Below are positions 3,093 through 63,591 of a DNA stretch of 64,000 bases, piece by piece. Origin of the DNA: a virus (Duplodnaviria > Heunggongvirae > Uroviricota > Caudoviricetes); the IMG/VR virus record IMGVR_UViG_3300049215_000227, positions 39,998 to 103,997 of that record; one strand, 5' to 3'. The number at the start of each line of letters is the position of its first letter. The first letter of the stretch is position 1. A program made the position numbers and the translations under genes. The notes beneath the pieces are model-generated. The model saw only the letters and a program-made list of their open reading frames with translations, was not told where the DNA came from and ran no database searches.

Positions 3093-3664
3093 TACTCAAT
3101 TCTCTCCGTAATTCCGCCCTCTTCCACGAACACATTCTTCATGTTATTCTTAACATACGTCGATCCCTTTTGGGACAGAGTTACGTAAGAGATAACTAAG
3201 AAGTCAGGTTCCGGTCTATCTGGCGGATATATCTTCAATATACTAAAAGGTACCAATGCAGCTCTAGTAAATCCCATATCTGCCACATGATTTACTGAGT
3301 TAATAACTCTATTGATAGCTACATCTAGCTTCTCTATGCCTGCTCTAGCAACTGCAAAATGAACTAAATCTGCCTTACGAACATAAAGTTGATCAGCATC
3401 GATGTCTTTGTAATACTCGCAGCTTTTTAAGTTCAACTTACCGAGCAAGCGAAGCCACTCTGGAAGCTTCTCGTTGTACTGATGCACTAGATGCTCAGTT
3501 TTGTTTTCAAGCGCCTTGATAGCCTTCTCGTTAAAGTAGCCCTTAAAGATTGGATAGATGTCTGTCATCTCAAAGCCGGGCATAACCGTTACCGGTTGAC
3601 CCTCTTTGTCGGCGTTACCGCTTTTTATTAGTGCGTCGATTGCTAGCGCGATGTCTGACGGCAT
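3092..3664 (-). CDS. hypothetical protein
   Basis: 190-aa ORF whose stop abuts the groEL start. Confidence 0.65.
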   Translation of the reverse strand: MPSDIALAIDALIKSGNADKEGQPVTVMPGFEMTDIYPIFKGYFNEKAIKALENKTEHLVHQYNEKLPEWLRLLGKLNLKSCEYYKDIDADQLYVRKADLVHFAVARAGIEKLDVAINRVINSVNHVADMGFTRAALVPFSILKIYPPDRPEPDFLVISYVTLSQKGSTYVKNNMKNVFVEEGGITERIE

Positions 3665-5620: not shown

Positions 5621-6358
5621 ATGGGAATCAGAGAAGACTTTCAACCTTACGTAGACGGCAACAACTTGATGGCACCGCACCAGGTTGCACCCAACTCTGG
5701 CAGGGGTTCTGACAATGGAACCATGTACACGAGCGAGTACTTCATCATGCTGAAGAAGAACAGCGTGCTCACCGAAGAGGACAAGGAAGACTACGAGGAT
5801 CGAATTGAGCCGTGCATCGACCTAGAAGGAATGCTCAACCGTGCACCGAATGACTCCGATCAAGAAGGACCGGACGACTACTATGGGGTTCTCAACGGCT
5901 GCATGGAGCTGGGAAACGTCTCGATCCCGCGAAGATTCCTGAAGGCCTTGATCCGCAACCTTGGCTTCTTGAACAATAGCCAGCCGGAAAAATGGACGCT
6001 GAACTCGTTCTTGGCTCGCCAGATGCAACTTACTTGCTGCATGGTTAACGCCTCATTCCCTAGTTGGGTAAACCCTCTTCACTGGCTGGTACGAATTTTA
6101 GCCAGCCCACTGTATCTCTACAGCGCAATCTGCTTGCTCGTCAGCTGCATCGGTACGGATACCGGAGACACGGACGCCAGGAGACTCGCTTGGCATCTCG
6201 GAAACAACGTTGGCAAGAGATCGCTCCTGTGCTGGCTGGCGTACAAGGTTTGGCTGCGAAGACTTTACAAGGATTATGCTGGCGGGATGAGCGACGTCGC
6301 GAAGATCTATTACGGACCCGCGGGAGATAACGCTTACAGTAGATGGTGGCGCACCTAG
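5621..6358 (+). CDS. hypothetical protein (predicted alpha-helical)
   Basis: 245-aa ORF; TG-n-TACAAT 6 nt before ATG; TAG stop overlaps the 3' end of a tRNA on the opposite strand. Confidence 0.75.
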   Translation: MGIREDFQPYVDGNNLMAPHQVAPNSGRGSDNGTMYTSEYFIMLKKNSVLTEEDKEDYEDRIEPCIDLEGMLNRAPNDSDQEGPDDYYGVLNGCMELGNVSIPRRFLKALIRNLGFLNNSQPEKWTLNSFLARQMQLTCCMVNASFPSWVNPLHWLVRILASPLYLYSAICLLVSCIGTDTGDTDARRLAWHLGNNVGKRSLLCWLAYKVWLRRLYKDYAGGMSDVAKIYYGPAGDNAYSRWWRT

Positions 6359-6421
6359 AGGGACTCGAACCCCCGTCGCACGATGTTAGAGATCGCCGTT
6401 CTGCCGCTGAACTATAGGTGC
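6347..6421 (-). tRNA. tRNA-Sup (anticodon CUA, amber)
   Basis: Acceptor GCACCTA/TAGGTGC, D stem GTTC/GAAC, anticodon arm GCGAT-CTCTAAC-ATCGT, T arm GGGGG-TTCGAGT-CCCTC, G73, encoded CCA; 75 nt. Confidence 0.92.
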
Positions 6422-6426
6422 AAGAT

Positions 6427-6502
6427 TGGAGATCCCAGCGGGATTCGAACCCGCGACCGTGCGATTTAGAGTTGCCCGCTCTACCAACTGAGCTATGGGA
6501 TC
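6427..6502 (-). tRNA. tRNA-Sup (anticodon CUA, amber), weak anticodon stem
   Basis: Acceptor GATCCCA/TGGGATC, D stem GCTC/GAGC, GGCAA-CTCTAAA-TCGCA (two mismatches), T arm GCGGG-TTCGAAT-CCCGC, U73, CCA; 76 nt. Confidence 0.85.
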
Positions 6503-12376: not shown

Positions 12377-13248
12377 TCAACACCAAGAAGTGCTTAATCT
12401 GCAAGGATGGCAAGAAGAACAACTGCTTGCACTGGCATGTTGATCCGGAAGACGGCTCTATCTGGGTCTGGTGCCAAGGGAAGTGCCAGCGCGGGTACTC
12501 CATCCGCGATTACTGCTGGCACGCAGGCATCGATCTCCCTGAGTTCTTGAAGGGTGACTTTGACTTCAAGGAAGCTCCTCCAAACGAGGTGCAGGCCATG
12601 AACTGGCCAGCGCGCTTCATTCCACTTTCTGATCCACGAGCAGAGGCCGGCGTTGCGTATGTTCGCAGCCGAGGACTCACGCTTGAAGGCGACATGTATT
12701 ATGATTTAGAGAGGAAGGGAATTGTCTTCCCTTACTATTTTGATAACACTTTTTGCGGCGCGCAGACCAGGTTCATAGAACCGCGCGTCCATCCAGACGG
12801 CGAGATTCAAAAGATGGATACGCTTCCTGGAACCCGGTTAGGGTTGCTTTTTTATGGCTGGAATCAGTCGCGCTTCGTTGGAGATGTTAAGGGAGTCATT
12901 GTCACGGAGGGCTCGTTTAACGCAATCGCTATTAACCAAGCGTTCAACTTGGCTAGCGGCGGCGTTGCTCGTAATGCCTGGCGGGCTATTTCTTGTAGCG
13001 GGGCTGGCGCTACGAAGCATCATCAGGAAGCGCTTAAGGAACTTAAGGAACAAGGACTAAAAGTTATCATTGCCCCAGATCTAGACGATGCCGGGATGAA
13101 GATGCTTAAGAAGTTCAAGGAATCTGACTCCTGTACTCACTATGCACTCACCAGCGATACGCGCGACTGGAACGACATGTGTCGAGACCTAGGACACGCT
13201 GAGTTTGCTAAGTGGTTCTGGACCACAGTAAAAAGTATACATGACTAG
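12373..13248 (+). CDS. DNA primase (Zn finger + TOPRIM)
   Basis: CLIC..WCQGKC Zn-binding region; VIVTEGSFNAIA and PDLDDAG TOPRIM motifs. Confidence 0.88.
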   Translation: MINTKKCLICKDGKKNNCLHWHVDPEDGSIWVWCQGKCQRGYSIRDYCWHAGIDLPEFLKGDFDFKEAPPNEVQAMNWPARFIPLSDPRAEAGVAYVRSRGLTLEGDMYYDLERKGIVFPYYFDNTFCGAQTRFIEPRVHPDGEIQKMDTLPGTRLGLLFYGWNQSRFVGDVKGVIVTEGSFNAIAINQAFNLASGGVARNAWRAISCSGAGATKHHQEALKELKEQGLKVIIAPDLDDAGMKMLKKFKESDSCTHYALTSDTRDWNDMCRDLGHAEFAKWFWTTVKSIHD

Positions 13249-13543
13249 CGTAGAGCTCGTTGCGTTCAGCAACGACAATCATATCGACACTCACGGTGCC
13301 TATCGTGGAACTCTTTCGAATCCGCGAGACAGACTTCTATCTACGCTTAAAAAACTGGGTCTAAGATCGCCAAACGTTCTCCCTGAGCACGTGTATACAG
13401 TTCCAATCTCTGGGATCTACATGGTTCAGCACATGAACATGAGCAGTGGTCAAAGAGACATGCAGATGACCAGATTCAACGCTGGTGACATAGTTCAAAT
13501 CGACCCCGCTTGCAAGGTGATGATTCACAGGCTCGGTTCCTGA
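13241..13543 (+). CDS. hypothetical protein carrying LxxLxKLG-like motif
   Basis: DRLLSTLKKLGLR. Confidence 0.6.
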   Translation: MTSVELVAFSNDNHIDTHGAYRGTLSNPRDRLLSTLKKLGLRSPNVLPEHVYTVPISGIYMVQHMNMSSGQRDMQMTRFNAGDIVQIDPACKVMIHRLGS

Positions 13544-53569: not shown

Positions 53570-53818
53570 ATGGACGGTATATCAATATTGGAACGTATCG
53601 TAGAGGAGGAAGGATCGTGTTGCTGGGCGACTCCAAAAGTCTGTTCCCGATGTCCGTTAAGTCGGCTAACACGATCTGACAATGGTGGCTATATGAGTTG
53701 CGTAGAAGCACTCAACATAGATGGACTAAGTGAAGAAGAAGCTGATGCAAGGTATAAAAAGGCCGCACTTGACAAGCTCGCTGATCTCGCCATCGAGAAG
53801 GCGATCGAGGCCGACTGA
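53570..53818 (+). CDS. small Cys-rich protein (Fe-S loop-like)
   Basis: ILERIV..G.CCWATPKVCSRCPL. Confidence 0.6.
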   Translation: MDGISILERIVEEEGSCCWATPKVCSRCPLSRLTRSDNGGYMSCVEALNIDGLSEEEADARYKKAALDKLADLAIEKAIEAD

Positions 53819-54070
53819 ATGGCATTAAGCTCAAGTGATAAGAATGTACTAGAAGAGATCGTCAAGACCGACGGTCAGTGCCTTGACTCGTCGCGATGCA
53901 GACGATGTCCCTTTAGAGCCGCGTGCCTCCCAGAGTTTTTAAACCCAATCCCGCCAAGTCCGCCTCAACGATTAAAGATGGCTCAGGACGTTCTGGCGCA
54001 CCACTATCTCATCGACGACGACGTCGAGATAGAGGAATTTCAGAAAGACAAAAGTGGAAAAACCAATTGA
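53819..54070 (+). CDS. small Cys-rich protein, paralog of 53570
   Basis: VLEEIV..GQCLDSSRCRRCPFRAAC. Confidence 0.6.
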   Translation: MALSSSDKNVLEEIVKTDGQCLDSSRCRRCPFRAACLPEFLNPIPPSPPQRLKMAQDVLAHHYLIDDDVEIEEFQKDKSGKTN

Positions 54071-54197
54071 GACAGAGTACTTTGAGAAAGAGTACGACGA
54101 CAAGATAAGGATGCAGCTGTTCATGCTCGTGTTTAAGTTATTAAGCAACGAGCAGGCTCTCCGCGTCTCTAAGTCATGGCAACCTAGACTTATTTAA
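54054..54197 (+). CDS. small protein, LxxLLxKL-like family (47 aa, not in track)
   Basis: MEKPIETEYF..MQLFMLVFKLLSN. Confidence 0.45.
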   Translation: MEKPIETEYFEKEYDDKIRMQLFMLVFKLLSNEQALRVSKSWQPRLI

Positions 54198-54315
54198 GTT
54201 CTCATCTGCTATAATAATCCTATGCCGCATCCCCGCGGTAGATAGGAGGAATCATGCTTAAATCATTAAGAACACTGAGCTTCCTATTCTCTTGCAATCA
54301 ACCAAAGGAAGTAGT

Positions 54316-54435
54316 ATGGACAGCCGCATCGACAAGATTGATGTTAAGCGTGAACACAAAGAGCTCATTGATCTCTTCTACCGCTTGGAGCTCAAACACT
54401 TCCTACAAGTACTCCTATACCGCCGTTCCCGATAG
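54316..54435 (+). CDS. small protein, LxxLLxKL-like family (39 aa, TAG stop in frame with next gene)
   Basis: MDSRIDKIDVKREHKELIDLFYRLELK; AAGGA SD. Confidence 0.45.
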   Translation: MDSRIDKIDVKREHKELIDLFYRLELKHFLQVLLYRRSR

Positions 54436-54450
54436 GGGTACAAGAATCCA

Positions 54451-54744
54451 ATGAGCTTCTACGATCGTTTAAACATGGACCAGGTTGAGAGCACCTATAA
54501 GCTCATCAAGGTCCTAGAACGTCTCAGAGTCATTGGTAGGTTAAAAGCTCACACGGAGAAGGCCATCCCTCTCATAGAGATCTTTGGGCATCAAGACGTG
54601 CTGGAGATTATCGACATGACTGGCAACGACTATTGCATAGTTAAGGATAGCTATTCGTCTGACAAGTCTCAGATGTCTGCCGACGAGATGATCGAGGAGA
54701 TATTTGGGAGACGCGGCGTTGGCTTGAGAGGAATCAACTCTTAG
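54451..54744 (+). CDS. small protein, LxxLLxKL-like family
   Basis: YKLIKVLERLRVI. Confidence 0.6.
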   Translation: MSFYDRLNMDQVESTYKLIKVLERLRVIGRLKAHTEKAIPLIEIFGHQDVLEIIDMTGNDYCIVKDSYSSDKSQMSADEMIEEIFGRRGVGLRGINS

Positions 54745-55009
54745 GCGGTTTGCCTAGTTGCTTCATGAGTCCTTCCATAGCTTGAGAGCTCATGATGAGT
54801 TGGTCAGGCTGTCCGTAGTTTTGATACACCTGCGCCTGCAAGTTTGCCAGCATCTGAGCTAGCACCTCTTCCTTCTTATCCACTGCGGACTTGATGCCGA
54901 GTTTGATAAGAAGATTGCGTAGGTTGTGACGGCACTTTCTGCTCTGCCAGTCCCTATTGTTAAGGCTAGCTTCACTTCCGTACCTTGCAAAGTTATCGTC
55001 GTTGATCAC
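54734..55009 (-). CDS. small protein, LxxLLxKL family
   Basis: HNLRNLLIKLGIK. Confidence 0.6.
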   Translation of the reverse strand: MINDDNFARYGSEASLNNRDWQSRKCRHNLRNLLIKLGIKSAVDKKEEVLAQMLANLQAQVYQNYGQPDQLIMSSQAMEGLMKQLGKPPKS

Positions 55010-55497
55010 CAGGGAATCTCCACGTGTACTAGGATGAAGTCTCGACCTCTGTTTGGGTTGTATATGCCCGCAGAGGATATGTGTTTGTAGTCGAGACCGA
55101 TGATGTGACCCTTGTCGTCCTTCACGCCGATCAAGAAGTCTTGGTTGAACTCAAACCAACCGCCGAGCATGCTGTCTGGAGTTGTGATCGCTCCAATGCC
55201 CCACAGAGATCTAAGAACTAGATAACCTGGATTCGCCTCTACTCCTGCAGAGATGTTGCCGAACCCAGAGGAGCTGCGACCGTTGCCGCCTTGATCCGCG
55301 AAGATGCCGCCTTCGTACTGGTAGATGAACGGACCGAACCACTCGTCCTCGTAACCCAGCGAGAAGCTCTTAGTTTCACCTCTGCCGTAGTCAGCGCTGC
55401 TGAACACTCCCAAGCCGTAGCGACCGAACGTTCCAGCTATCGCTGAGCTCGCAGCTAGCAAGCCCGCTATCATTGCCGCTAAGATAAACTTCTTCAT
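55006..55497 (-). CDS. pagL: PagL-like outer-membrane beta-barrel (lipid A 3-O-deacylase homolog)
   Basis: Signal peptide, alternating beta-strands, FEFNQDFLIG..LDYKHISSAGIYNPNRGRD (H-x-S motif), terminal aromatic residue. Confidence 0.8.
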   Translation of the reverse strand: MKKFILAAMIAGLLAASSAIAGTFGRYGLGVFSSADYGRGETKSFSLGYEDEWFGPFIYQYEGGIFADQGGNGRSSSGFGNISAGVEANPGYLVLRSLWGIGAITTPDSMLGGWFEFNQDFLIGVKDDKGHIIGLDYKHISSAGIYNPNRGRDFILVHVEIPW

Positions 55498-55730
55498 CGC
55501 CTCAAACTCTCCACGCCGTGTCCCGTTGTTCTTACAAATCTGCTAGCGTTAGATTCAAACCGCTTGGTGCGATCGAACCTGCTAAGATGACTGTCGATCA
55601 TCTGCCTTCGATCGTCGCTCACCTCTGACTGACCAATCTGAAACTGGTAGCCAGTTATGTGACCGAAGCGATTGCCATTCTTGTTTCCCCAGGGGTCATG
55701 AAAGCGGCGGCTCCACGCAGAGATCTTCAT
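55494..55730 (-). CDS. hypothetical protein
   Basis: TATAAC 6 nt before ATG; ATGA-coupled to pagL-like gene. Confidence 0.5.
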   Translation of the reverse strand: MKISAWSRRFHDPWGNKNGNRFGHITGYQFQIGQSEVSDDRRQMIDSHLSRFDRTKRFESNASRFVRTTGHGVESLRR

Positions 55731-55742
55731 GCAGTAGTTATA

Positions 55743-55871
55743 CTAAGAACTGATCCCACCGTCGGGCCAGGTGTAGAGCACGGCGCGAAGCCTATGACCC
55801 TCAGTGATGATGTCAAGCTTGTACAGAAGCTCGAACAAGCCTCTGCAAGCTCTGCTGTCCTCATACGTCAT
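55743..55871 (-). CDS. small protein, LxxLLxKL family (42 aa, not in track)
   Basis: RGLFELLYKLDII; TAG stop in frame with next gene. Confidence 0.55.
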   Translation of the reverse strand: MTYEDSRACRGLFELLYKLDIITEGHRLRAVLYTWPDGGISS

Positions 55872-56097
55872 GAGGTCCTTGCCAGGGCTTGTAATCCTTG
55901 TCGGCTTTCTTGATTGGGACGAACTGGATGAAGTCTTTGCTTAGACTCACCATGGCGAGCTCCAAGCACGGTTCTGGCTTTGGACCGTTTGGCTGCAGGA
56001 GCATCTGCGCGTATGACCAGCTCACCTTCCTCATGCCTAGCACTTCGAGCTTGCACAGCAGGATGAGAATGCGAAGTCTTGGGTCGCCAACGTTCAT
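55861..56097 (-). CDS. small protein, LxxLLxKL family
   Basis: LRILILLCKLEVL; TAATG overlap. Confidence 0.55.
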   Translation of the reverse strand: MNVGDPRLRILILLCKLEVLGMRKVSWSYAQMLLQPNGPKPEPCLELAMVSLSKDFIQFVPIKKADKDYKPWQGPHDV

Positions 56098-56237
56098 TAC
56101 CAAGCTCCTGGCAGAGTTGTGTCCGCGAACATGCGAAAGATTTTAGCCTTGCGAACGCCAAGCTTGTGCAATAGGTACAGAAGATCTCTCTTAGCTACCA
56201 TGCCTCTCTTCTGGGAGTACATCAGCTCGTAGTTCAT
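56097..56237 (-). CDS. small protein, LxxLLxKL family (46 aa, not in track)
   Basis: RDLLYLLHKLGVR. Confidence 0.55.
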   Translation of the reverse strand: MNYELMYSQKRGMVAKRDLLYLLHKLGVRKAKIFRMFADTTLPGAW

Positions 56238-56416
56238 ACGACCTCGTAAAGATAAGCAGCACTCTTCAAGCCGAGCTTCTTAAGGATGCTAACTAGGCAG
56301 TCGGCGTGATGGTAGTTGGTTCTGTCTGGAAAGATGCCGGTGGTGCTGATGACGTGATGGGAGATTCTAAGCATGTCGATCTCGCGCTCAAAGTAGTACA
56401 GAATACGTCGCTGCAT
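56234..56416 (-). CDS. small protein, LxxLLxKL family
   Basis: DCLVSILKKLGLK; TATAAC 6 nt before ATG. Confidence 0.55.
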   Translation of the reverse strand: MQRRILYYFEREIDMLRISHHVISTTGIFPDRTNYHHADCLVSILKKLGLKSAAYLYEVV

Positions 56417-56431
56417 TCGGTAGTTATACTC

Positions 56432-56716
56432 TTACTGGCCGACGCCAGGGTTCTGATCCTCGTAGACAGAATCTACTAGATGCGTTGGCTTTCCCCACTT
56501 GCGCCTGCCGACGAGGTGCGCTGGCTTAGGTCGCTTGCCCCCTCCGTGGTCGTGGAGCGCCCCGCGCGTGCCGCGATCTTCCGGAAGTCTTCCCTCTCTG
56601 GTGCTCGCGGAGATGCTCCTGTGAGGCGTGTTGCCCGGCATGTCGGCGTCCTTTGGATCGGTGAGAGCCTTGTGCAAGGTCCACTGACCGTTCTGAGCGA
56701 AGGTGAGATATTCCAT
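56432..56716 (-). CDS. hypothetical low-complexity basic protein
   Basis: MEYLTFAQNGQWTLHK; TAGAAT upstream. Confidence 0.55.
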   Translation of the reverse strand: MEYLTFAQNGQWTLHKALTDPKDADMPGNTPHRSISASTREGRLPEDRGTRGALHDHGGGKRPKPAHLVGRRKWGKPTHLVDSVYEDQNPGVGQ

Positions 56717-56794
56717 AGCTCTCTAGATTCTATCACCCAGCGAAGCTTCTCTTCCTGAGCATCGGCGTGCCCCCACCCCACTCAGTTTTTAACT

Positions 56795-57010
56795 TCAAGG
56801 CAACTTACGTCCAGCGAAGAAGTAGTAGTGGTTCTCGCCGTCCGGCGACATCCTAGCGCTGAGCGCTTGCCTGATGCCGAGCTTGTTGAGAAGCTCGCTG
56901 AGGTTGAACATGGCGATAAACTTGTGCTCGTCGACGCTCGGCACGACCCTGCTGGTCTTCTTGTGGTAGCTGCAGTAAGCGCATGTGCACGCCTGCCCGT
57001 GGTTAGTCAC
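56795..57010 (-). CDS. small Cys-containing protein, LxxLLxKL family
   Basis: CTCAYC..FNLSELLNKLGIR. Confidence 0.55.
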   Translation of the reverse strand: MTNHGQACTCAYCSYHKKTSRVVPSVDEHKFIAMFNLSELLNKLGIRQALSARMSPDGENHYYFFAGRKLP

Positions 57011-57176
57011 CGCACACCTGCACGGTCTCGTACAAGGGCTCGTAAACGCACGAGTTGCTGCTGCAATCGTGTTCCCTCATGCCGACCACCTTCTTAACGT
57101 CGTGGCACATAGTCTGGTTGACAGGTATGGCCCAAAACGTTATCGTCATCGCGAGTATCAAGATGATGTATCTCAT
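57003..57176 (-). CDS. small secreted/membrane Cys-rich protein (57 aa, not in track)
   Basis: MRYIILILAMTITFWAIP..C..C..C..C; overlaps both neighbours. Confidence 0.5.
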   Translation of the reverse strand: MRYIILILAMTITFWAIPVNQTMCHDVKKVVGMREHDCSSNSCVYEPLYETVQVCGD

Positions 57177-57397
57177 TGGTGCCTCTCGTGAAGCAGCTTG
57201 TGCAGCAGCTGAAACAGCCTGTTGCGGGCCACAAACTGGTCAGCGTCATCTATGAGCTGGTAAGTGTTGGGGCACGAGCAGCGCGGCAAGACCGGCCACA
57301 GCTTGAGGTGTTTCGTGTCGAACGTTACGGCCTTAAGTGTGGACTCTAGCGACTCAACGAGTAGGGGACCAGGGCTTGACGTTTTGTTACTCGACAC
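57173..57397 (-). CDS. small protein, LxxLLxKL family
   Basis: NRLFQLLHKLLHE. Confidence 0.5.
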   Translation of the reverse strand: MSSNKTSSPGPLLVESLESTLKAVTFDTKHLKLWPVLPRCSCPNTYQLIDDADQFVARNRLFQLLHKLLHERHQ

Positions 57398-57641
57398 GCA
57401 TGCCTCCGCGGAGACCTAGCTTATGCAGCAACACCATCAAGTAGAGGTGCTGGACGCTTATGAACGGGACCCAGCCCGGGATATGGGTAACTCTGAGTAT
57501 CTCCTGCTTGTACTCCGCGTGGAGCGGCGTGTTAACCAAGAAGCGCATGAGACGGTCGTGGGTGTTGGCCTTCTCGTAAGCGTCCCAGATGTAGGCGCGT
57601 GCGCGGTCGAGGAGTAGGTTTGGTTCTTTGTGAGTTTCCAT
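57387..57641 (-). CDS. small protein, LxxLLxKL family
   Basis: LYLMVLLHKLGLR; TATAAT 6 nt before ATG. Confidence 0.6.
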   Translation of the reverse strand: METHKEPNLLLDRARAYIWDAYEKANTHDRLMRFLVNTPLHAEYKQEILRVTHIPGWVPFISVQHLYLMVLLHKLGLRGGMRVE

Positions 57642-57657
57642 ATTCGTATTATACGAA

Positions 57658-57686
57658 GGGTACAGGGTACCGCGCGAACCTATTAG
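57658..57686 (-). promoter_or_regulatory. conserved 29-nt upstream element, copy 1
   Basis: CTAATAGGTT-N5-GGTACCCnGTACCC, 4 nt upstream of TATAAT. Confidence 0.6.
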
Positions 57687-57837
57687 GGGTGCTTGTATAG
57701 GCCTAGCTTAGTGAGGAGGTTGAGGAGTTTGTATAGTTGGTTTGAGCTGTAAACCACGGTGCCGACGGATTGGCGGGTAACCTTGTGAGGGCGGTTGTTG
57801 GGTGCGGACTTGAAGATGCGGCGGTGCCAGAAGGAGA

Positions 57838-58023
57838 TCATGTGTCGTGAGGAGTGATGGTGAACGGGTTGAGGTAGCTGTTTGGGAAGTTGTGAGCCGC
57901 TGCGAAGAGGGCGAAGGGTACGTCGCGAGTGGTGTTGCTTAGTAGGTAGGTGCGTAGGCTGCTGGGTGTAGTTACCCTGAGCTTAGTGAGTAGAAGCACG
58001 AGGTTGTCGTAATGATCGTACAT
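57838..58023 (-). CDS. small protein, LxxLLxKL family
   Basis: MYDHYDNLVLLLTKLRVT; start moved to ATG 58023, after TATAAA. Confidence 0.55.
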   Translation of the reverse strand: MYDHYDNLVLLLTKLRVTTPSSLRTYLLSNTTRDVPFALFAAAHNFPNSYLNPFTITPHDT

Positions 58024-58044
58024 TTTTATATTTATACCCGCGTG

Positions 58045-58073
58045 GGGTACGGGGTACCTGTGAAACCTATTAG
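58045..58073 (-). promoter_or_regulatory. conserved 29-nt upstream element, copy 2
   Basis: Same motif, 8 nt upstream of TATAAATA. Confidence 0.6.
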
Positions 58074-58120
58074 AAAAGCTCATGTACGCGGCGTCCGCGC
58101 AGTGGGTACCAGTCCCGACT

Positions 58121-58134
58121 CAAGGGATCCCTTG
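58121..58134. repeat. perfect 14-bp palindrome at the divergence point
   Basis: CAAGGGATCCCTTG. Confidence 0.8.
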
Positions 58135-58201
58135 TAAGGCAAGGCCAGCGGGCCCTGTTTCAGCATTAGGCACTTAGCAAACCCGATCCTAAGGAGAACG
58201 T

Positions 58202-58360
58202 ATGAGAATGGGATTCGAGAGGAAAGTTAACTACGTATACTGGAATGCGTCCCTGCTTAACAAGCGGATCAGCTATCCAGAGGCGCTGCGGATCGCCAAC
58301 AAGTTTTCGGAAGAGGAGCTGCGCCGAATCTATCTTAAGTTGAAAGCGAGGAACGTATGA
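58202..58360 (+). CDS. hypothetical protein (52 aa, not in track)
   Basis: AAGGAG SD; ATGA-coupled to next gene. Confidence 0.6.
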   Translation: MRMGFERKVNYVYWNASLLNKRISYPEALRIANKFSEEELRRIYLKLKARNV

Positions 58361-58581
58361 CAGTTCAACAGATCAAGAACCAGATCAGGGACTTACAGGT
58401 CGCGCTTGCCCAGAACAACCTGGAGTTGAAGCGGGAGACGAGAGCGAATCGGACCATGAATCTGCCTCGGCTTATGGAAGCTCGATACCAGATCATGCTC
58501 ACGATCGCCCACAGGCAGGGATTGTTGATCCAGATCCTCGAGACAGAGGTTGCATACCAGACTACGAAGGAGGTCGCATGA
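58357..58581 (+). CDS. hypothetical coiled-coil protein
   Basis: 74 aa, coupled on both sides. Confidence 0.65.
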   Translation: MTVQQIKNQIRDLQVALAQNNLELKRETRANRTMNLPRLMEARYQIMLTIAHRQGLLIQILETEVAYQTTKEVA

Positions 58582-58688
58582 AGGTGTTTGATAGAGCGAT
58601 TGAGTGGACGATGATTGGCATAGCGATCTGGGCAGTGGTTGGCGCTGTCCAGATCCTAGGCGAGATTGGGAGGGTATTCCATGGCTGA
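58578..58688 (+). CDS. small membrane protein (36 aa)
   Basis: GGAGG SD; hydrophobic core WTMIGIAIWAVVGAVQIL. Confidence 0.5.
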   Translation: MKVFDRAIEWTMIGIAIWAVVGAVQILGEIGRVFHG

Positions 58689-58839
58689 TGACAGGAAGGC
58701 GTTCGAGGAGTTCTTGAAGAGAGACGAGAAGGAGCTAACTGTAGCGGACTTAGGTCCGGACGACTTCGAGTGCAACTGCGAGATGTGCACGCTTGGATGG
58801 TCCATCATCCCTGCAGGCACTGACCAGAAGAGCGGATAG
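58681..58839 (+). CDS. hypothetical protein (52 aa, CxCxxC)
   Basis: GGAGG upstream; FECNCEMC; TAG stop. Confidence 0.55.
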   Translation: MADDRKAFEEFLKRDEKELTVADLGPDDFECNCEMCTLGWSIIPAGTDQKSG

Positions 58840-58884
58840 GGCATAGGGCGAGGGACATCCACCTCGCCTACGCCTATTCCCCTA

Positions 58885-58899
58885 CTGACACTGCTACGC
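58885..58899 (+). repeat. CTGACACTGCTACGC intergenic repeat 1
   Basis: Exact 15-mer after GGCGAGG/CCTCGCC hairpin. Confidence 0.85.
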
Positions 58900-59059
58900 C
58901 AGCGCCCCGAGACTATATAACAAATTCCCCACAATATTGGTTTAACGGTGATTACCCGACTCTATATCTAGTTGTAAGCGAAACGGTCGATCGGAAATCA
59001 AAATTGAAATCTGAAACGATCGGTTAGCATAACAAACAGGTCTTAACGGAGGAACGATT

Positions 59060-59533
59060 ATGACCAAGATGACTCAGAAGGAAGCAGTTTTCAGCGCAGT
59101 AACCAACGTCTGCCAACCAGTCGGCGAGAACCACTTCGCACCGACGAAGGAAGAGCGCGCTCAGATCAACCAGATCCTGTTCGAAGGTTTTCGGTCTGGC
59201 AAGATCGAGTTGGAGAAGGAGTACGACGACTCTGGTCTCAAGGCATACGTGAGCGGACTTCAGTCCAACTGGCTTCGCAAGGACAAGCGCCTGAACGGTG
59301 GCGTGGCGTACGTCGCCAAGAACCCTGGTTCTCGCGCTGGATCGACTGATCCGCAAGTCAAGGCGATGCGTCAGCTCTTGGCAACCAAGACTGACCCGAG
59401 CGAGCGCGCTGAGATCCAAGCGTTCATCGACAAGCGCGTCGCTGAGATCAAGCCGACCAAGTCCGTCGAGCTGAGCGCTGAGCAGATCGCCACGCTCGAA
59501 GCCGCTGGTCTCGGTCACCTGATCGCTGGCTAA
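59060..59533 (+). CDS. hypothetical protein (probably highly expressed early)
   Basis: GGAGG SD; strongly C/G-ending codon choice. Confidence 0.8.
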   Translation: MTKMTQKEAVFSAVTNVCQPVGENHFAPTKEERAQINQILFEGFRSGKIELEKEYDDSGLKAYVSGLQSNWLRKDKRLNGGVAYVAKNPGSRAGSTDPQVKAMRQLLATKTDPSERAEIQAFIDKRVAEIKPTKSVELSAEQIATLEAAGLGHLIAG

Positions 59534-59580
59534 GCAACAAGTTAGGTTGGGGACTGGGCGACAAGCCTGGTCCCCACCAA

Positions 59581-59595
59581 CTGACACTGCTACGC
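59581..59595 (+). repeat. CTGACACTGCTACGC intergenic repeat 2
   Basis: Exact 15-mer after GGGGACTGGGC/GCCTGGTCCCC hairpin. Confidence 0.85.
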
Positions 59596-59641
59596 ACGGA
59601 CCCACCCTGTCCCGATCCTACATCTACCTAACGGAGGACAT

Positions 59642-59929
59642 ATGAGAGGACATAAGTTCGTCATCATAGTCGGAGACAGTTACATCCTTGAGGACTACGA
59701 CCTGACTCAAGAAGTCAGCGACCAGATCGAGTGGAACGAAGACCCATACCTCGCCGTGGTTACGCTCCCGCACGAGAACTTCTCCGACAACGTGGTGGTC
59801 CTAACTCACGCTGCCGACGCGGAGGACGAGACGTGGGTCGTGAGGGATGTGAAGGGTCGACTCTGGTATTACATGGACGTAATGTCGAAGATGGACCTGA
59901 TCCTAAACATGGAGCAGACGGAGGATTAA
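59642..59929 (+). CDS. hypothetical acidic protein
   Basis: GGAGG SD. Confidence 0.7.
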   Translation: MRGHKFVIIVGDSYILEDYDLTQEVSDQIEWNEDPYLAVVTLPHENFSDNVVVLTHAADAEDETWVVRDVKGRLWYYMDVMSKMDLILNMEQTED

Positions 59930-59932
59930 GTC

Positions 59933-60331
59933 ATGAACCATCAACTTTGCTACCTAGCGCTGCTCTGCCAGCAGAAGAACGATCTCAACCGGAGGCGCAG
60001 GCGCTTCCACGCGCTGAGACCCAAGACTAAGTGGCTCGGATACGACGCCAACCAGAAGCCGATGTACGCCGAGTATGCCCCTCACCGCGCCTACACGCTG
60101 GAGGAGATCTACGCCGGCTACCAGAAGGCGCAGTCCGACATGAAGGCGATGACCAAGGAGATGCGCCAGGTCCAGAAGCTGGCAGGTGCAACCCTGCACT
60201 GGGGCGACTCAGGTCAGATCCAAGCCATCGTGCTCAACGGCGAGGGTTATTACAGGGATCGCTGCATCTACCCTAAGCAATGGGCAAGACTCATCGACCT
60301 CTACCAAGCTGACGAGATACTTCTCAAGTAG
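59933..60331 (+). CDS. hypothetical protein
   Basis: 132 aa; follows previous stop by 3 nt. Confidence 0.7.
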   Translation: MNHQLCYLALLCQQKNDLNRRRRRFHALRPKTKWLGYDANQKPMYAEYAPHRAYTLEEIYAGYQKAQSDMKAMTKEMRQVQKLAGATLHWGDSGQIQAIVLNGEGYYRDRCIYPKQWARLIDLYQADEILLK

Positions 60332-60426
60332 GGAAACAGCTACCGACTACCAGTCAATAGACCCATAGAAGCTCAGGGGACTAGCCGAATGTCGGGATAG
60401 GCTAGTCCCAACCACCCGATACCCTG

Positions 60427-60441
60427 CTGACACTGCTACGC
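60427..60441 (+). repeat. CTGACACTGCTACGC intergenic repeat 3
   Basis: Exact 15-mer after GGGACTAGCC/GGCTAGTCCC hairpin. Confidence 0.85.
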
Positions 60442-60508
60442 CGATGCCTCAGGGCCAAGTCGGCTACCCTTCAGGTCCACACATACAATCCTGATCCTAA
60501 TTCCCCAC

Positions 60509-60742
60509 ATGGATGTATGGGAGAGGTGGGTGAGACGATCACTCGAGGATTGTCATAGAGCGAGAAAAGATCTTCAGGTCAAACTCCCTTTGATGCCTGA
60601 AGACCACCTGTTCCTCCTGACCCTTAGGAGGATGGACGCTAGGTATCGGCTGATCAGATTATTGCTTAAGCTTAATTCTAAGTCAGCTGATGCTATTCGG
60701 TGGGCGTCGGGGCTCACCCAGCCTCCAGGAGATGTGGCCTAA
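60509..60742 (+). CDS. small protein, LxxLLxKL family
   Basis: YRLIRLLLKLNSK. Confidence 0.55.
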   Translation: MDVWERWVRRSLEDCHRARKDLQVKLPLMPEDHLFLLTLRRMDARYRLIRLLLKLNSKSADAIRWASGLTQPPGDVA

Positions 60743-60945
60743 TGAAATCAGCATGTTACATAGCCAGTCGAGTGTTTGGAGCTAGAGTGGACAGTGCGGA
60801 GGTAGCATCCTTAGGGAGGCTTCTAGGACTATTAGGGAAGCTGGGGATCAGTAGCCAATCAGTGCATATCACGTGGTTCTACAGAGGGGCTCGATTGGAA
60901 GGGCTGGGAGTAGGCAGCAAGTATAGGCAGATGAGCCAGAAGTAG
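60742..60945 (+). CDS. small protein, LxxLLxKL family
   Basis: GRLLGLLGKLGIS; TAATG overlap; TAG stop in frame with next gene. Confidence 0.55.
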   Translation: MKSACYIASRVFGARVDSAEVASLGRLLGLLGKLGISSQSVHITWFYRGARLEGLGVGSKYRQMSQK

Positions 60946-60957
60946 GGGTTATTCAGC

Positions 60958-61119
60958 ATGAACGGGATGCCACAGTTTGAGCCCTTTGACGCAGTCGTCA
61001 AGCTGCTTAATATCCTGGTTCGCCTCAACGTTAAGAGCGCTAGGAGAGATGTCATATTGAAGTCTTACTTAGGCGGCATAGATTCCTACCTAGAGCGAGT
61101 GGGTAAGAGGCGTGACTAA
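60958..61119 (+). CDS. small protein, LxxLLxKL-like family (53 aa, not in track)
   Basis: VKLLNILVRLNVK. Confidence 0.55.
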   Translation: MNGMPQFEPFDAVVKLLNILVRLNVKSARRDVILKSYLGGIDSYLERVGKRRD

Positions 61120-61366
61120 GATTACGAACATTAGGAGTATGGGTTGCGAGGTGTGTAACGGGACTGAGATGTCCTACGCTCGCACTGTTGCTAAAGCCCA
61201 AAATATAGTCTCTAATAAGTGGTTTGCAACCTACAGGGAGAGGTGGCTAGACGAGCTTAGTCCTGGTAGAGATGTTGACTGCATGATGTGCGCTAGGATT
61301 GGGTTCGGTGTTAAGGTCGTTCTCGTTGACCTGCTGGATAAGTTGAGAGTTATGAGACATGAGTAG
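61112..61366 (+). CDS. CxxC..CxxC zinc-finger protein with C-terminal LxxLLxKL motif
   Basis: CEVC..CMMC..VLVDLLDKLRV. Confidence 0.6.
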   Translation: MTKITNIRSMGCEVCNGTEMSYARTVAKAQNIVSNKWFATYRERWLDELSPGRDVDCMMCARIGFGVKVVLVDLLDKLRVMRHE

Positions 61367-61595
61367 AAAAAGACATAGTTGCTCCGTATGTGGTAATAAA
61401 AGCATAAAGCGCTCGCCAAAATTAACTATCGAATATGCTTCACGATTTGTGCGACGTGGGTTAGTAAATTATCACCTTCAGAGAGAATTTCTATGTTTGG
61501 AAAGAAAACCTGGGGAGTGTGTAACTTGTCTCCAGGTAGGAACGGGATCGAAGATAATTCTAGTTAACATGTTAGAACGATTGGATGTTTTATAG
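61359..61595 (+). CDS. CxxC..CxxC zinc-finger protein with C-terminal motif
   Basis: CSVC..CVTC..ILVNMLERLDVL. Confidence 0.6.
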   Translation: MSRKRHSCSVCGNKSIKRSPKLTIEYASRFVRRGLVNYHLQREFLCLERKPGECVTCLQVGTGSKIILVNMLERLDVL

Positions 61596-61732
61596 TGGAT
61601 AAGGACTTGTTAAGGAATAGGGCTGTAGACGATTTACTTTATCTCCTATTCATGCTTGAGGCGATAAGTAACGACGTTTGGGACGATGCTTGCTCGAGAT
61701 TATCCCTCAGCAGATTGAAGAGCAAGCTATGA
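61595..61732 (+). CDS. small protein, motif family (45 aa, not in track)
   Basis: DDLLYLLFMLEAI; TAGTG overlap. Confidence 0.5.
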   Translation: MDKDLLRNRAVDDLLYLLFMLEAISNDVWDDACSRLSLSRLKSKL

Positions 61733-61893
61733 ATTACAGGGTTAGACGATCCGTAGATAAGCTCATCTATGTCCTGTTTCTGCTTGGCATTCAGTCAACT
61801 AAAGATAGGCGACTTCAGGGAACTGAGACCTTGTACTACTGCGAGCGCGTTTACAGAGTTATAGGTCCAAAGCGCTGGCAGTGGGAGCAATGA
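61729..61893 (+). CDS. small protein, motif family
   Basis: DKLIYVLFLLGIQ. Confidence 0.5.
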   Translation: MNYRVRRSVDKLIYVLFLLGIQSTKDRRLQGTETLYYCERVYRVIGPKRWQWEQ

Positions 61894-61896
61894 GAT

Positions 61897-62064
61897 ATGG
61901 GCAGCAAGAGGGGTGCTATAGCTACGTTTGGCTTGCTGAGACTGCTGGCATTGCTGGGCAACAAGGGCGTTAAGGCTAAGTTTGAGAGCAACGGGCACGT
62001 AGACGTGGTTGCTATCGGTTACTACGCGAGGAAGTATGAGCGGAAATCACAAGCGGAAGACTAG
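61897..62064 (+). CDS. small protein, motif family (55 aa, not in track)
   Basis: FGLLRLLALLGNK. Confidence 0.5.
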   Translation: MGSKRGAIATFGLLRLLALLGNKGVKAKFESNGHVDVVAIGYYARKYERKSQAED

Positions 62065-62191
62065 AAAACTGAGGCGCGAGCGAAAGTTTAGGTCGACAAA
62101 CGACTTGATCACTCTGCTTCAGAAGCTGGATATCGTTGAGTCCTGGAAGCTAAGAGGTGTGTGGAAGTTTGTGTATAGGTTTGAATCATGA
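62036..62191 (+). CDS. small basic protein, LxxLLxKL family
   Basis: NDLITLLQKLDIV. Confidence 0.55.
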   Translation: MSGNHKRKTRKLRRERKFRSTNDLITLLQKLDIVESWKLRGVWKFVYRFES

Positions 62192-62334
62192 GTCAAAAAA
62201 GAATAGAAGAGCAACGACAAGTAAGAGCTGTATATTGTTTATTTCGACTTCTTAGTAAGTTTAAGTTGTTAAAAGGAACTGTCTCTGGTATAAGAGTTGA
62301 AATTAACGGTAGCATGTACAACCTTGATTTCTGA
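62188..62334 (+). CDS. small protein, motif family (48 aa, not in track)
   Basis: YCLFRLLSKFKLL; ATGA overlap. Confidence 0.5.
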   Translation: MSQKRIEEQRQVRAVYCLFRLLSKFKLLKGTVSGIRVEINGSMYNLDF

Positions 62335-62361
62335 ACATATCCATGCTTGGAGAAAATCTTT

Positions 62362-62778
62362 ATGAGTCAGATAGTGATGGACAATATTCAGGCTGAGGCA
62401 TATCGCTTCGTCAAGGACGGAACCCCAATGAATGAGCGAGGTCCTCAATGGACTGAGTTCACTCGTTCTGCTATTGCTGAGGCACGCAAGCGAGTAGAGC
62501 ACGAGGAACTTCTTAAGGTTGAGAAGTCTGAACGCAATCTCGCTACTAAGCAAGGATTGTCGTACGACGAGTGGCTTGAGAAAGCTAAGAAGCTTTACTC
62601 TATCGACCAGCAGACAGCTGTCGTCACAAGCATCGCTTTGGGACCAGATCACGGCAAGACTTGGGAATGTGAGAGCTACGTAGACGCTCGCAAGCGCGTT
62701 CTCAAGCTGATGCAATACAAGAAGTACGATCACTTCGTTCGTGGTCACGACTTCGCATACGACCCGGATAAGGCATGA
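62362..62778 (+). CDS. hypothetical protein
   Basis: GGAG SD; about 138 aa. Confidence 0.7.
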   Translation: MSQIVMDNIQAEAYRFVKDGTPMNERGPQWTEFTRSAIAEARKRVEHEELLKVEKSERNLATKQGLSYDEWLEKAKKLYSIDQQTAVVTSIALGPDHGKTWECESYVDARKRVLKLMQYKKYDHFVRGHDFAYDPDKA

Positions 62779-62972
62779 GTGAAGAGAAGATCACTGTCAA
62801 AGACTACACTTCGCACTCTAATCGTGTGCTTAATCGCGCTATTGCATTGCGCAAGAAGCAGATCGAGCGTGCTGAGGCAGGCAACAACAGGACGGATAAG
62901 TCAATAGCTCAACTCAAGTATGAGTTGGAAGCAATGACCAACACTCTCCTAGAAAGGGCGATGACTAAATGA
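62775..62972 (+). CDS. hypothetical protein
   Basis: ATGA-coupled. Confidence 0.65.
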   Translation: MSEEKITVKDYTSHSNRVLNRAIALRKKQIERAEAGNNRTDKSIAQLKYELEAMTNTLLERAMTK

Positions 62973-63262
62973 GAAAGTGCGACAAGAAGCGACTCAAAAA
63001 GATTCGTCACGACCAAAAGATTCAGCGCTGCAAGAGTAGGTTAAGAGCTCGTCTCATCTCTGTTGCTGTCGGCAATAACGTTATGCCTCACACTCCGACT
63101 ATTGAGGTGATAGTTCAACTGGTTCAACTTACTCCATTGAAGGAGCTCAAGATCATTGAGTCTAATCAGTCTCGCTTCCAGAACTTTCCCATGCGAGAGC
63201 ATTTGTTTCGACTGGTTGTAGATGAGATCGCATTAAGATCGTTGAGGATAGATCACGAGTGA
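62969..63262 (+). CDS. hypothetical protein
   Basis: Coupled to neighbours. Confidence 0.6.
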   Translation: MRKCDKKRLKKIRHDQKIQRCKSRLRARLISVAVGNNVMPHTPTIEVIVQLVQLTPLKELKIIESNQSRFQNFPMREHLFRLVVDEIALRSLRIDHE

Positions 63263-63591
63263 TGATGCCATCGCCATTTGCTATCAACGATCTAGTTACT
63301 GGCAAAGATAAGTCTTACCTGAGGTCTGTCTACAAATACATTGGTCACACCGACGATCCTGAGTCAGGCATATTTGAGTTGGTAACGTATAAGCGTCAGT
63401 GCGTGGATTACTTTCGTCATGCGAAGGCGAGATCAACTGTCTACACGTTCAAGAGAAGATACGACGAGTTTGTCTTGGCCAGCAGTGAGGAGATTGCTAA
63501 GTCAAATAAAACGCGTGCAACCTACATGCTTTGCTACGTGCTGGACAAATTAGGTGTTGGGTCAGCTCACGACTACACGACTCCCTTCTGA
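63259..63591 (+). CDS. hypothetical protein with C-terminal LxxLLxKL-like motif
   Basis: YMLCYVLDKLGVG. Confidence 0.6.
   Translation: MMMPSPFAINDLVTGKDKSYLRSVYKYIGHTDDPESGIFELVTYKRQCVDYFRHAKARSTVYTFKRRYDEFVLASSEEIAKSNKTRATYMLCYVLDKLGVGSAHDYTTPF

Follow-up and report, generated by a model that had tools for sequence, protein, structure and literature searches.

A short leucine-rich helical motif recurs on otherwise dissimilar small basic proteins encoded in the gene arrays of a large phage

A short leucine-rich motif of the general form L-x-x-L-L-x-K-L-G-I recurs in about 19 open reading frames (ORFs) of two dense small-gene operons, and in one outlying ORF at 13241–13543, in the DNA of a Caudoviricetes virus (IMG/VR record IMGVR_UViG_3300049215_000227). 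The window analyzed is a stretch of 64,000 nucleotides, positions 39998–103997 of this complete 176.5-kb viral record, in which direct terminal repeats are present; coordinates below are those of the window unless they are marked as genome coordinates. The proteins that carry the motif are tiny and basic, and share little else that can be detected. Hence, we propose that the motif may be a docking tag, not tied to any one position, in a quickly evolving set of tiny basic proteins, a reading to which we give a probability of roughly 0.45. Even on a more modest reading, the motif marks out a previously undescribed family, with more than 88 members and no representative in Pfam, PHROGs or GenBank phages.

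The original prediction listed 24 motif strings, and six-frame translation finds every one of them where it had been placed; a further string, LLNLLTKLGL on the minus strand, had been overlooked (Table 1). A strict pattern, L..[LIMV]L.KL[GDERN][IVL], has 12 copies in 38 small ORFs, whereas 2000 residue shuffles give 0.002 on average and never more than 1, and in the same ORFs a medium pattern gives 18 copies against 0.04 and a loose pattern 26 against 0.95. The motif is thus commoner than in a composition-matched control, as had been predicted, and a chance origin is excluded. Across the 176.5-kb genome, a six-frame scan returns 17 strict matches, 12 of which fall inside the region, which makes up 5.4% of the genome. 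A profile built from the motif copies retrieves 18 ORFs at an expect value (E) of less than 0.01 among the genome's 3069 ORFs, and a profile search across genome contigs finds 28 places at E ≤ 1, a number that differs among five genomes (28, 13, 9, 12 and 2). The earlier count of more than 20 ORFs was slightly generous: about 19 are solid in the region, and five strings (LFMLVFKLLS, LIDLFYRLEL, LLYLLFMLEA, LIYVLFLLGI and LLRLLALLGN) are doubtful, being too degenerate to have profile support alone. LIDLFYRLEL is part of a separately conserved protein, the orthologues of which keep ELIALFYRIEL.

For the family as a whole, an iterated profile over five whole genomes and ten loci yields 88 distinct members, counting non-identical members only. 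The full motif reads S/A-x3-L-Φ-x-L-L-x-K-L-G-I-K-S-A-R over 14–18 residues, and the consensus of the relatives is L-L-x-K-L-G-I-K-S-A-R. Numbering from the first leucine of the core, leucine stands at position 1 in 87 of the 88 members and at positions 5 and 8 in all of them; position 4 is leucine in 75% and otherwise always hydrophobic, and position 2 is hydrophobic in 80%. Lysine or arginine occupies position 7 (94%), glycine position 9 (60%, otherwise N, D or R) and isoleucine or valine position 10 (91%), followed by K/R at 11 (52%), S at 12 (42%), A at 13 (47%) and R at 14 (19%). The logo of the 88 members adds serine or alanine at −4, likely a helix N-cap, and aromatics at −6 and −2, with no conservation outside −6 to +14.

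Conservation of the motif is found in the peptide. In a codon alignment of 75 distinct copies, supplied by this genome and by 16 related IMG/VR loci obtained via a conserved 157-residue neighbor, third positions carry 0.02–0.10 bits, except for 0.64 at the Lys codon, and the first and second positions of conserved residues carry 1.1–2.0 bits. All six leucine codons are in use, and the serine of K-S-A alternates between TCN and AGY. Given that third positions are close to 0 bits and that both serine codon families occur, conservation is at the protein level, as first suspected from the varied codons, and selection acts on the peptide, not on the DNA. It is therefore hardly credible that the motif is a translated DNA or RNA element (a promoter, terminator, recombination or processing site) or a chance product of leucine-rich composition. 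AAG-CTN is frequent at the Lys-Leu step and the motif lies in dense operons, where regulatory sites are expected, but a nucleic-acid element does not account for random third positions, or for a motif whose every copy follows the frame and coding strand of a packed small ORF. The only direct repeats found are stretches of 26–35 nucleotides that are 63–85% identical, as shared codons would give, and the shuffles yield 0.002 copies where 12 are observed. As far as sequence analysis reaches, both explanations are refuted.

After masking of the motif, BLAST groups the 88 members into 77 clusters, 71 of which are singletons, and the sole detectable paralogue pair in the window is 61112–61366 and 61359–61595, in agreement with the earlier description of the ORFs as unrelated. 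The median member has 61 residues, and the shortest, of about 35–40 residues, hold little beyond the motif. The members have a median isoelectric point of 9.56 and a net charge of +5.6 per 100 residues, compared with −0.3 for the long proteins of the phage and +0.3 for nearby motif-less small genes, and an excess of positive charge (+3.1 per 100 residues) is also present outside the motif. The position of the motif varies from N-terminal to C-terminal, as had been noticed: it starts from 1 to about 100 residues from the N terminus, is C-terminal in about one-quarter of the members, and is followed by four residues or fewer in 6 of the 88, by 5–12 in 18 and by more in 64. Three proteins (P0002, P0003 and L006_3_365) carry two copies, of which P0002 has zero GenBank phage matches. 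Against 1.84 billion representatives, a 40-column profile finds only two proteins at E < 0.001, each with two copies; one of these two comes from a 24.7-kb contig with an array of more than 20 genes of 45–65 codons, about ten of which have the motif. In orthologue groups at about 30% identity the motif supplies the invariant columns and is the best-conserved stretch, and for 54734–55009 every invariant column across six orthologues is a motif residue. Zinc-finger-like CxxC pairs occur in a minority of members, and a sub-type in which CxxC is followed by 10–12 residues and then by a C-terminal motif recurs in several phages.

Two transfer RNAs with the anticodon CUA (amber suppressors) lie in the window at 6347–6502, and TAG ends 8 of 39 small genes. 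Read-through of TAG would join 60700–60945 in frame to 60958–61119, giving a two-motif protein, and would also join 55743–55871 to 55494–55730. The truncated forms, in which the motif is C-terminal, are real despite these suppressors, given that most of them end in TGA or TAA.

Because the scaffolds are unrelated, the motif can take any position, it is duplicated in some proteins and makes up nearly all of others, and it is the best-conserved stretch, we favor a shared tag over a domain. Such a tag would be a self-contained module of 14–18 residues, consisting of an amphipathic leucine-rich helix, a glycine cap and I-K-S-A-R, and it would bring every member to one common partner, with the variable remainder serving as cargo or specificity part. 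The leucine face (positions 1, 4, 5 and 8, with Ile 10) would be buried in that partner and not in the protein's own core, since four leucines are invariant with no conserved intramolecular partner in proteins of down to 35–40 residues. A single partner would be common to all members, because the same residues recur on about 77 unrelated scaffolds. In its most concrete version the tag would load proteins into the procapsid, similarly to the internal proteins of phage T4; an equally open version has adaptors that use a hub of the host or of the phage. The original prediction of a modular adaptor with a docking helix agrees with this shared-tag pattern, but no hub was identified, and the analysis gives the motif no link to GroEL, to the Nudix protein or to a protease.

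The same arrays might instead hold an old paralogous family that has diverged except for a core helix, which would act as a nucleus for folding or self-association, with differing functions and no common external partner. The tandem arrays and the detectable pair show that duplication does occur, the number of motif places varies among relatives as given above, the CxxC sub-type recurs, and hydrophobic residues past the motif have a weak helical period at +17, +21 and +24. We nevertheless consider this unlikely. Paralogy sits poorly with motif-to-end distances of 1 to about 90 residues when the median protein has only 61, with two motif copies in single proteins, and with a motif that comes before or after the same capsid-derived segment, depending on the member. 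Leucine is also invariant where a buried core would tolerate Ile, Val, Met or Phe, and the full-length AlphaFold2 model described next is without a confident fold.

On an anchored family alignment, AlphaFold2 predicts a helix (7–21), a three-residue turn (L8-G9-I10) and a second helix (25–39), with a predicted local distance difference test score (pLDDT) of 79 overall and 91 over the first helix. The full 91-residue product of 54734–55009 is predicted with the same local shape, the motif ending a helix at 18–36 that is followed by a turn, and no confident tertiary fold (pLDDT 63; predicted template modeling score, pTM, 0.29); a pTM this low fits folding that needs a partner. A two-copy complex prediction of the family window, made without controls, scores 0.01 and counts neither for nor against self-association. 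Searched against Protein Data Bank sequences, the profile aligns with 'LLAKLGI' in a LAGLIDADG intein (7qsu/7qss, E 0.004) and with 'LLNLLDKLNI' in the helix-turn-helix (HTH) domain of an Rgg regulator (4yv6, E 0.007). Because these are local look-alikes only, the motif is a supersecondary element of a generic kind: an amphipathic helix, closed by a glycine C-cap, that leads into the next element. A relation to LAGLIDADG homing endonucleases was rejected, the alignment being confined to 'LLAKLGI' and no LAGLIDADG family appearing in the Pfam scans.

Searches against known families and structures place the motif in none of them. Pfam and PHROGs give no recurrent match (ten full-length members at Pfam E ≤ 1; 69 forty-residue windows at Pfam E ≤ 10), and no HTH, ribbon-helix-helix or helix-extension-helix Pfam family is hit in the 69 windows, even at E ≤ 10. 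Foldseek finds zero matches to the 40-residue model in the Protein Data Bank, and a wide fold search with VIA-align returns generic helical hairpins only, with a best Z of 4.9. For 54734–55009, the ESM Atlas features score at best 0.89, for unrelated eukaryotic families and under the trust level, and a word-indexed homologue search finds only the protein itself. We found no description of such a family in the literature.

The predicted shape is also that of a minimal nucleic-acid-binding HTH corner, on small basic proteins whose role would be to coat nucleic acids, DNA or RNA, or to regulate them; the phosphate contacts would then come from Lys 7, Lys/Arg 11, Ser 12, Arg 14 and the N terminus of the second helix. 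The spacing L..LL.KLG[IV] is that of helix 2 and the turn of HTH motifs, the AlphaFold2 model has two helices about a tight glycine-containing turn, as such a corner would, and the Rgg domain is among the nearest matches in the Protein Data Bank. The high isoelectric point and the basic charge outside the motif point the same way. However, HTH motifs have alanine or glycine at position 5, and their bundle is completed by a third helix. In the motif, position 5 is leucine in all 88 members, and no third helix or strand is conserved that could finish a DNA-binding domain. Past the turn, 24 of the 88 members have at most 12 residues and 6 have at most four, so that the second helix is absent or too short, and the four invariant leucines lie on one face without a conserved intramolecular packing partner. 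With no HTH-type Pfam family in the 69 members searched, we judge a nucleic-acid-binding corner to be improbable, on a par with divergence from an old paralogous family.

Several points weigh against a docking tag. No partner was identified and the sequence data single out no candidate, so that docking is inferred from the pattern of conservation. A terminal address tag would be expected at a fixed end, and the motif has no fixed position. No protease site lies beside it, unlike in T4, and no cleavage consensus is known for this phage. The divergent small-gene operons resemble an early host-takeover region and not a head-gene cluster, and very basic proteins with the spacing of an HTH corner fit nucleic-acid binding equally. 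BLAST and phmmer are weak on proteins of 40–80 residues, which makes a hidden common ancestry of the scaffolds possible. Finally, the virion-protein pieces described below can be recognized in only about 8 of the 88 members.

In these few members, parts of the variable remainder resemble the virion proteins of the phage itself. Its major capsid protein gene (genome 14508–15968, minus strand) encodes a product about 31% identical to the capsid proteins of SPO1-like Bacillus phages and homologous to SPO1 Gp6.1 (9vel, E 2e-60). The segment in 57173–57397 matches the capsid proteins of five genomes at phmmer E 2e-8 to 8e-8, and the profile match still has E 3.3e-7 once the use of 88 profiles is corrected for. 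Of 26 residues that align with the capsid protein, 16 are identical, and codon positions 1, 2 and 3 are 73%, 81% and 46% identical. The low identity at position 3 compared with the other two marks it as an old copy held by selection on the peptide. Capsid residues 52–89 also occur in G001_67066 and G002_161897, there after the motif, whereas in 57173–57397 they come before it. A second capsid segment is found in 54734–55009 (Table 1), of which the orthologue L003_6630 matches capsid residues 232–272 at E 7.6e-5. Tail-sheath residues 1–20 open L004_8259, and G003_124723 holds a tail-tube-like piece from a 214-residue protein encoded downstream of the sheath gene. Virion proteins are the target of all clean matches. 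The claim that the variable parts pick targets thereby gains some plausibility, in that some of them copy capsid, tail-sheath and tail-tube-like segments.

A tag fused to diverged, selected copies of virion-protein segments is unusual, and points to co-assembly or molecular mimicry. In a bolder form of the tag reading, which we regard as doubtful, a constant address helix would be joined to variable peptides, including selected copies of the phage's own virion-protein interface segments (the capsid N-terminal segment, the sheath N terminus and the tail-tube-like piece), and would bring them to one machine or compartment. One such target could be the inside of the procapsid, with injection into the next host to follow; another could be a hub that neutralizes peptide binders, for instance host immune sensors that detect capsid or tail proteins, or intermediates in the assembly of competing phages. 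Mimics of this sort would, for example, be decoys for sensors that recognize virion proteins, and co-assembly or mimicry would be a new kind of phage strategy.

Two further observations concern the capsid region. An origin of the motif from the capsid's own helix 'MSGLLKQLQKG' was considered, as the order is collinear in the 54734–55009 family, and was set aside as unsupported because the profile misses the capsid protein; the motif is likewise not found in the scaffolding-like protein encoded upstream of the capsid gene. Separately, in G001 67066–67371 a 17-residue capsid-like piece is 82% identical to the capsids of G002–G004 and 71% to its own, a piece too short to interpret.

Table 1 Motif-bearing ORFs, capsid-like segments and a conserved neighbor in the window. 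'Profile' denotes the iterated family profile and 'contig search' the profile search of genome contigs.
Feature	Position	Strand	Evidence and remarks
100-residue outlying member after helicase and primase genes, LLSTLKKLGL-RS at 13334–13363	13241–13543	+	Profile E 0.07
97-residue member, LIKVLERLRV at 54502–54531 ('RLRVIG' variant)	54451–54744	+	Profile E 3.7e-3; motif kept by orthologues in at least 8 related loci
91-residue member, LRNLLIKLGI-KSA at 54893–54922	54734–55009	−	Profile E 2e-5
Capsid-like segment, residues 46–87 of the 91-residue member, similar to capsid protein residues 232–272	54749–54874	−	phmmer E 3e-3; jackhmmer domain E 2.6e-8
42-residue member, LFELLYKLDI at 55809–55838	55743–55871	−	Profile E 1.7e-5
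80-residue member, ILILLCKLEV at 56041–56070	55861–56103	−	Contig search E 3.9e-3; L006 orthologue with second motif copy
46-residue member, LLYLLHKLGV at 56154–56183	56097–56237	−	Profile E 1e-5
60-residue member, LVSILKKLGL-KSA at 56267–56296	56234–56416	−	Profile E 5e-5
71-residue member, N-terminal Cys/His cluster, LSELLNKLGI at 56873–56902	56795–57010	−	Profile E 6e-4; orthologues in L002, L005
74-residue member, degenerate C-terminal LFQLLHKLLH at 57188–57217	57173–57397	−	Profile E 2.8e-4 within genome; contig search E 0.05
Capsid-like segment, residues 10–50 of the 74-residue member, similar to major capsid protein residues 52–89	57248–57370	−	phmmer
84-residue member, LMVLLHKLGL near C terminus at 57411–57440	57387–57641	−	Profile, contig search; L006 orthologue keeps LHKLGLRG
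52-residue member, LLNLLTKLGL at 57698–57727, 4 residues before C terminus	57683–57841	−	Profile
81-residue member, LVLLLTKLRV at 57973–58002	57838–58083	−	Profile E 1.3e-4
157-residue conserved protein, motif-free, mid-array	59060–59533	+	Second copy at genome 106803–107330
77-residue member, LIRLLLKLNS-KSA at 60650–60679	60509–60742	+	Contig search E 4.3e-3
81-residue member, LLGLLGKLGI at 60820–60849	60700–60945	+	Profile, contig search; TAG end, in frame with next member
53-residue member, LLNILVRLNV-KSAR at 61003–61032	60958–61119	+	Profile E 1.3e-4; family-alignment AlphaFold2 model (helices 7–21 and 25–39, pLDDT 79)
84-residue member, two CxxC pairs, C-terminal LVDLLDKLRV at 61322–61351	61112–61366	+	Profile; paralogue of 61359–61595 (E 5e-7)
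78-residue member, CxxC pairs, LVNMLERLDV at 61560–61589, one residue before C terminus	61359–61595	+	Contig search E 0.014
60-residue member, basic N terminus, LITLLQKLDI at 62105–62134	62009–62191	+	Profile E 4.7e-5; orthologues in L004, L005, L006
48-residue weak member, LFRLLSKFKL at 62239–62268	62188–62334	+	Contig search E 0.048 only
110-residue member, LCYVLDKLGV near C terminus at 63529–63558	63259–63591	+	Profile E 6e-5; motif C-terminal in L002, L005 orthologues

Beyond the entries in Table 1, a further member lies at genome 11520–11999 (L018 1018–1485, minus strand), where a poly-Gly stretch comes after LRNLLVNLGIKSAR; because this member and the 3′ end of a 195-codon gene downstream of the capsid gene overlap, its start codon is ambiguous. 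A 190-residue ORF at 3092–3664, which overlaps the start of a cpn60-like gene, has a weak motif-like stretch, WLRLLGKLNLKS, at profile E 0.17 and zero Pfam matches.

The small genes form two diverging operons separated by a 118-bp gap: a tightly packed minus-strand operon of overlapping genes, from 58083 down to 54734, and a plus-strand operon from 58202 to beyond 63815, the motif ORFs of which span 60509 to 63591. The region has zero DNA matches to GenBank phages. Inside the minus-strand operon, 55006–55497 encodes a beta-barrel with a signal peptide that resembles PagL or a cyanophage outer-membrane protein, which points to a Gram-negative host. The motif-free 157-residue protein through which the related loci were obtained is the most conserved gene of the array (55–72% identity in all relatives) and is present twice per genome in G000, G002 and G003, with zero matches in Pfam, PHROGs and GenBank phage proteins; it is a candidate partner of the motif. 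Two adjoining genes of 82–83 codons, 53570–53818 and 53819–54070, encode one Cys cluster each (CSRCP and CRRCP); in contrast to the neighboring motif genes, both show strong conservation (E about 1e-40) across all relatives.

On the plus strand, a 21-nucleotide repeat, CCCTRCTGACACTGCTACGCC, stands upstream of three genes at 58880–58900, 59576–59596 and 60422–60442, and GATCCTA lies 10–25 nucleotides ahead of the starts at 58202, 59642 and 60509; either may be a phage-specific promoter or operator. On the minus strand, a −10-like box is found 6 nucleotides before the ATG at 55731–55744, 56417–56430 and 57642–57655; the genes that start at 55730 and 56416 have AGTATAACTAC and the one that starts at 57641 has CGTATAATACGAAT, and all three may have leaderless messenger RNAs. 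A 29-nucleotide repeat, GGGTACNGGGTACC...AACCTATTAG, occurs at 57658–57686 and 58045–58073 with 79% identity. One copy is intergenic; the second falls within the annotated 5′ portion of 57838–58083, and the true start of that gene may therefore be further downstream.

If the motif is a tag, knowledge of its receptor would explain, by one common mode of action, 10–30 orphan genes in each genome of this clade of large uncultured phages, and the motif would be a portable tag for sending proteins to that receptor.

Among known systems, the closest analogue is the set of T4-type internal proteins (IPI, IPII, IPIII, Alt and the variable T-even loci) with their capsid targeting sequence. A shared peptide docks the T4 internal proteins to the scaffolding core, which leads to their packaging and injection (PMC3012670). 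Both groups are diverse, fast-evolving, small and basic, with only one short peptide in common. The T4 capsid targeting sequence is N-terminal and is removed by the prohead protease, whereas the motif here can stand anywhere and in two copies, with no cleavage site known; in sequence, the two peptides are unrelated. The coat-binding helix-turn-helix of the P22 scaffolding protein (2gp8) is likewise a helical hairpin, basic and only about 40 residues long, and is among the structural look-alikes of the 40-residue model (Z 3.8; root-mean-square deviation 2.7 Å over 38 residues), a lead only, with a Z no better than that of hundreds of unrelated hairpins.

HTH, ribbon-helix-helix and helix-extension-helix corners (XRE/Rgg, 4yv6) share with the motif the spacing hydrophobic-x2-hydrophobic-x3-L-G-[IV], a following Ser/Thr N-cap and the predicted shape. 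The motif differs from them in the absence of a profile match, in leucine for a small residue at position 5, in a turn that is one residue longer, in the lack of a third conserved element and in the many members that stop at the turn. LxxLL boxes and F-box or BC-box adaptors likewise place a leucine-rich amphipathic helix on unrelated proteins independently of position, but the motif described here is longer (14–18 residues), has a glycine cap and a basic tail, belongs to bacterial viruses and has no homology to them, so that the likeness is one of analogy only. A last comparison is with the host-takeover modules of SPO1-like phages. Here, the host is probably Gram-negative, judging from the PagL-like outer-membrane protein, and we know of no shared motif reported for the SPO1 takeover proteins. 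Nevertheless, the capsid protein is homologous to SPO1 Gp6.1, and here too very small genes are packed into dense arrays in divergent operons.

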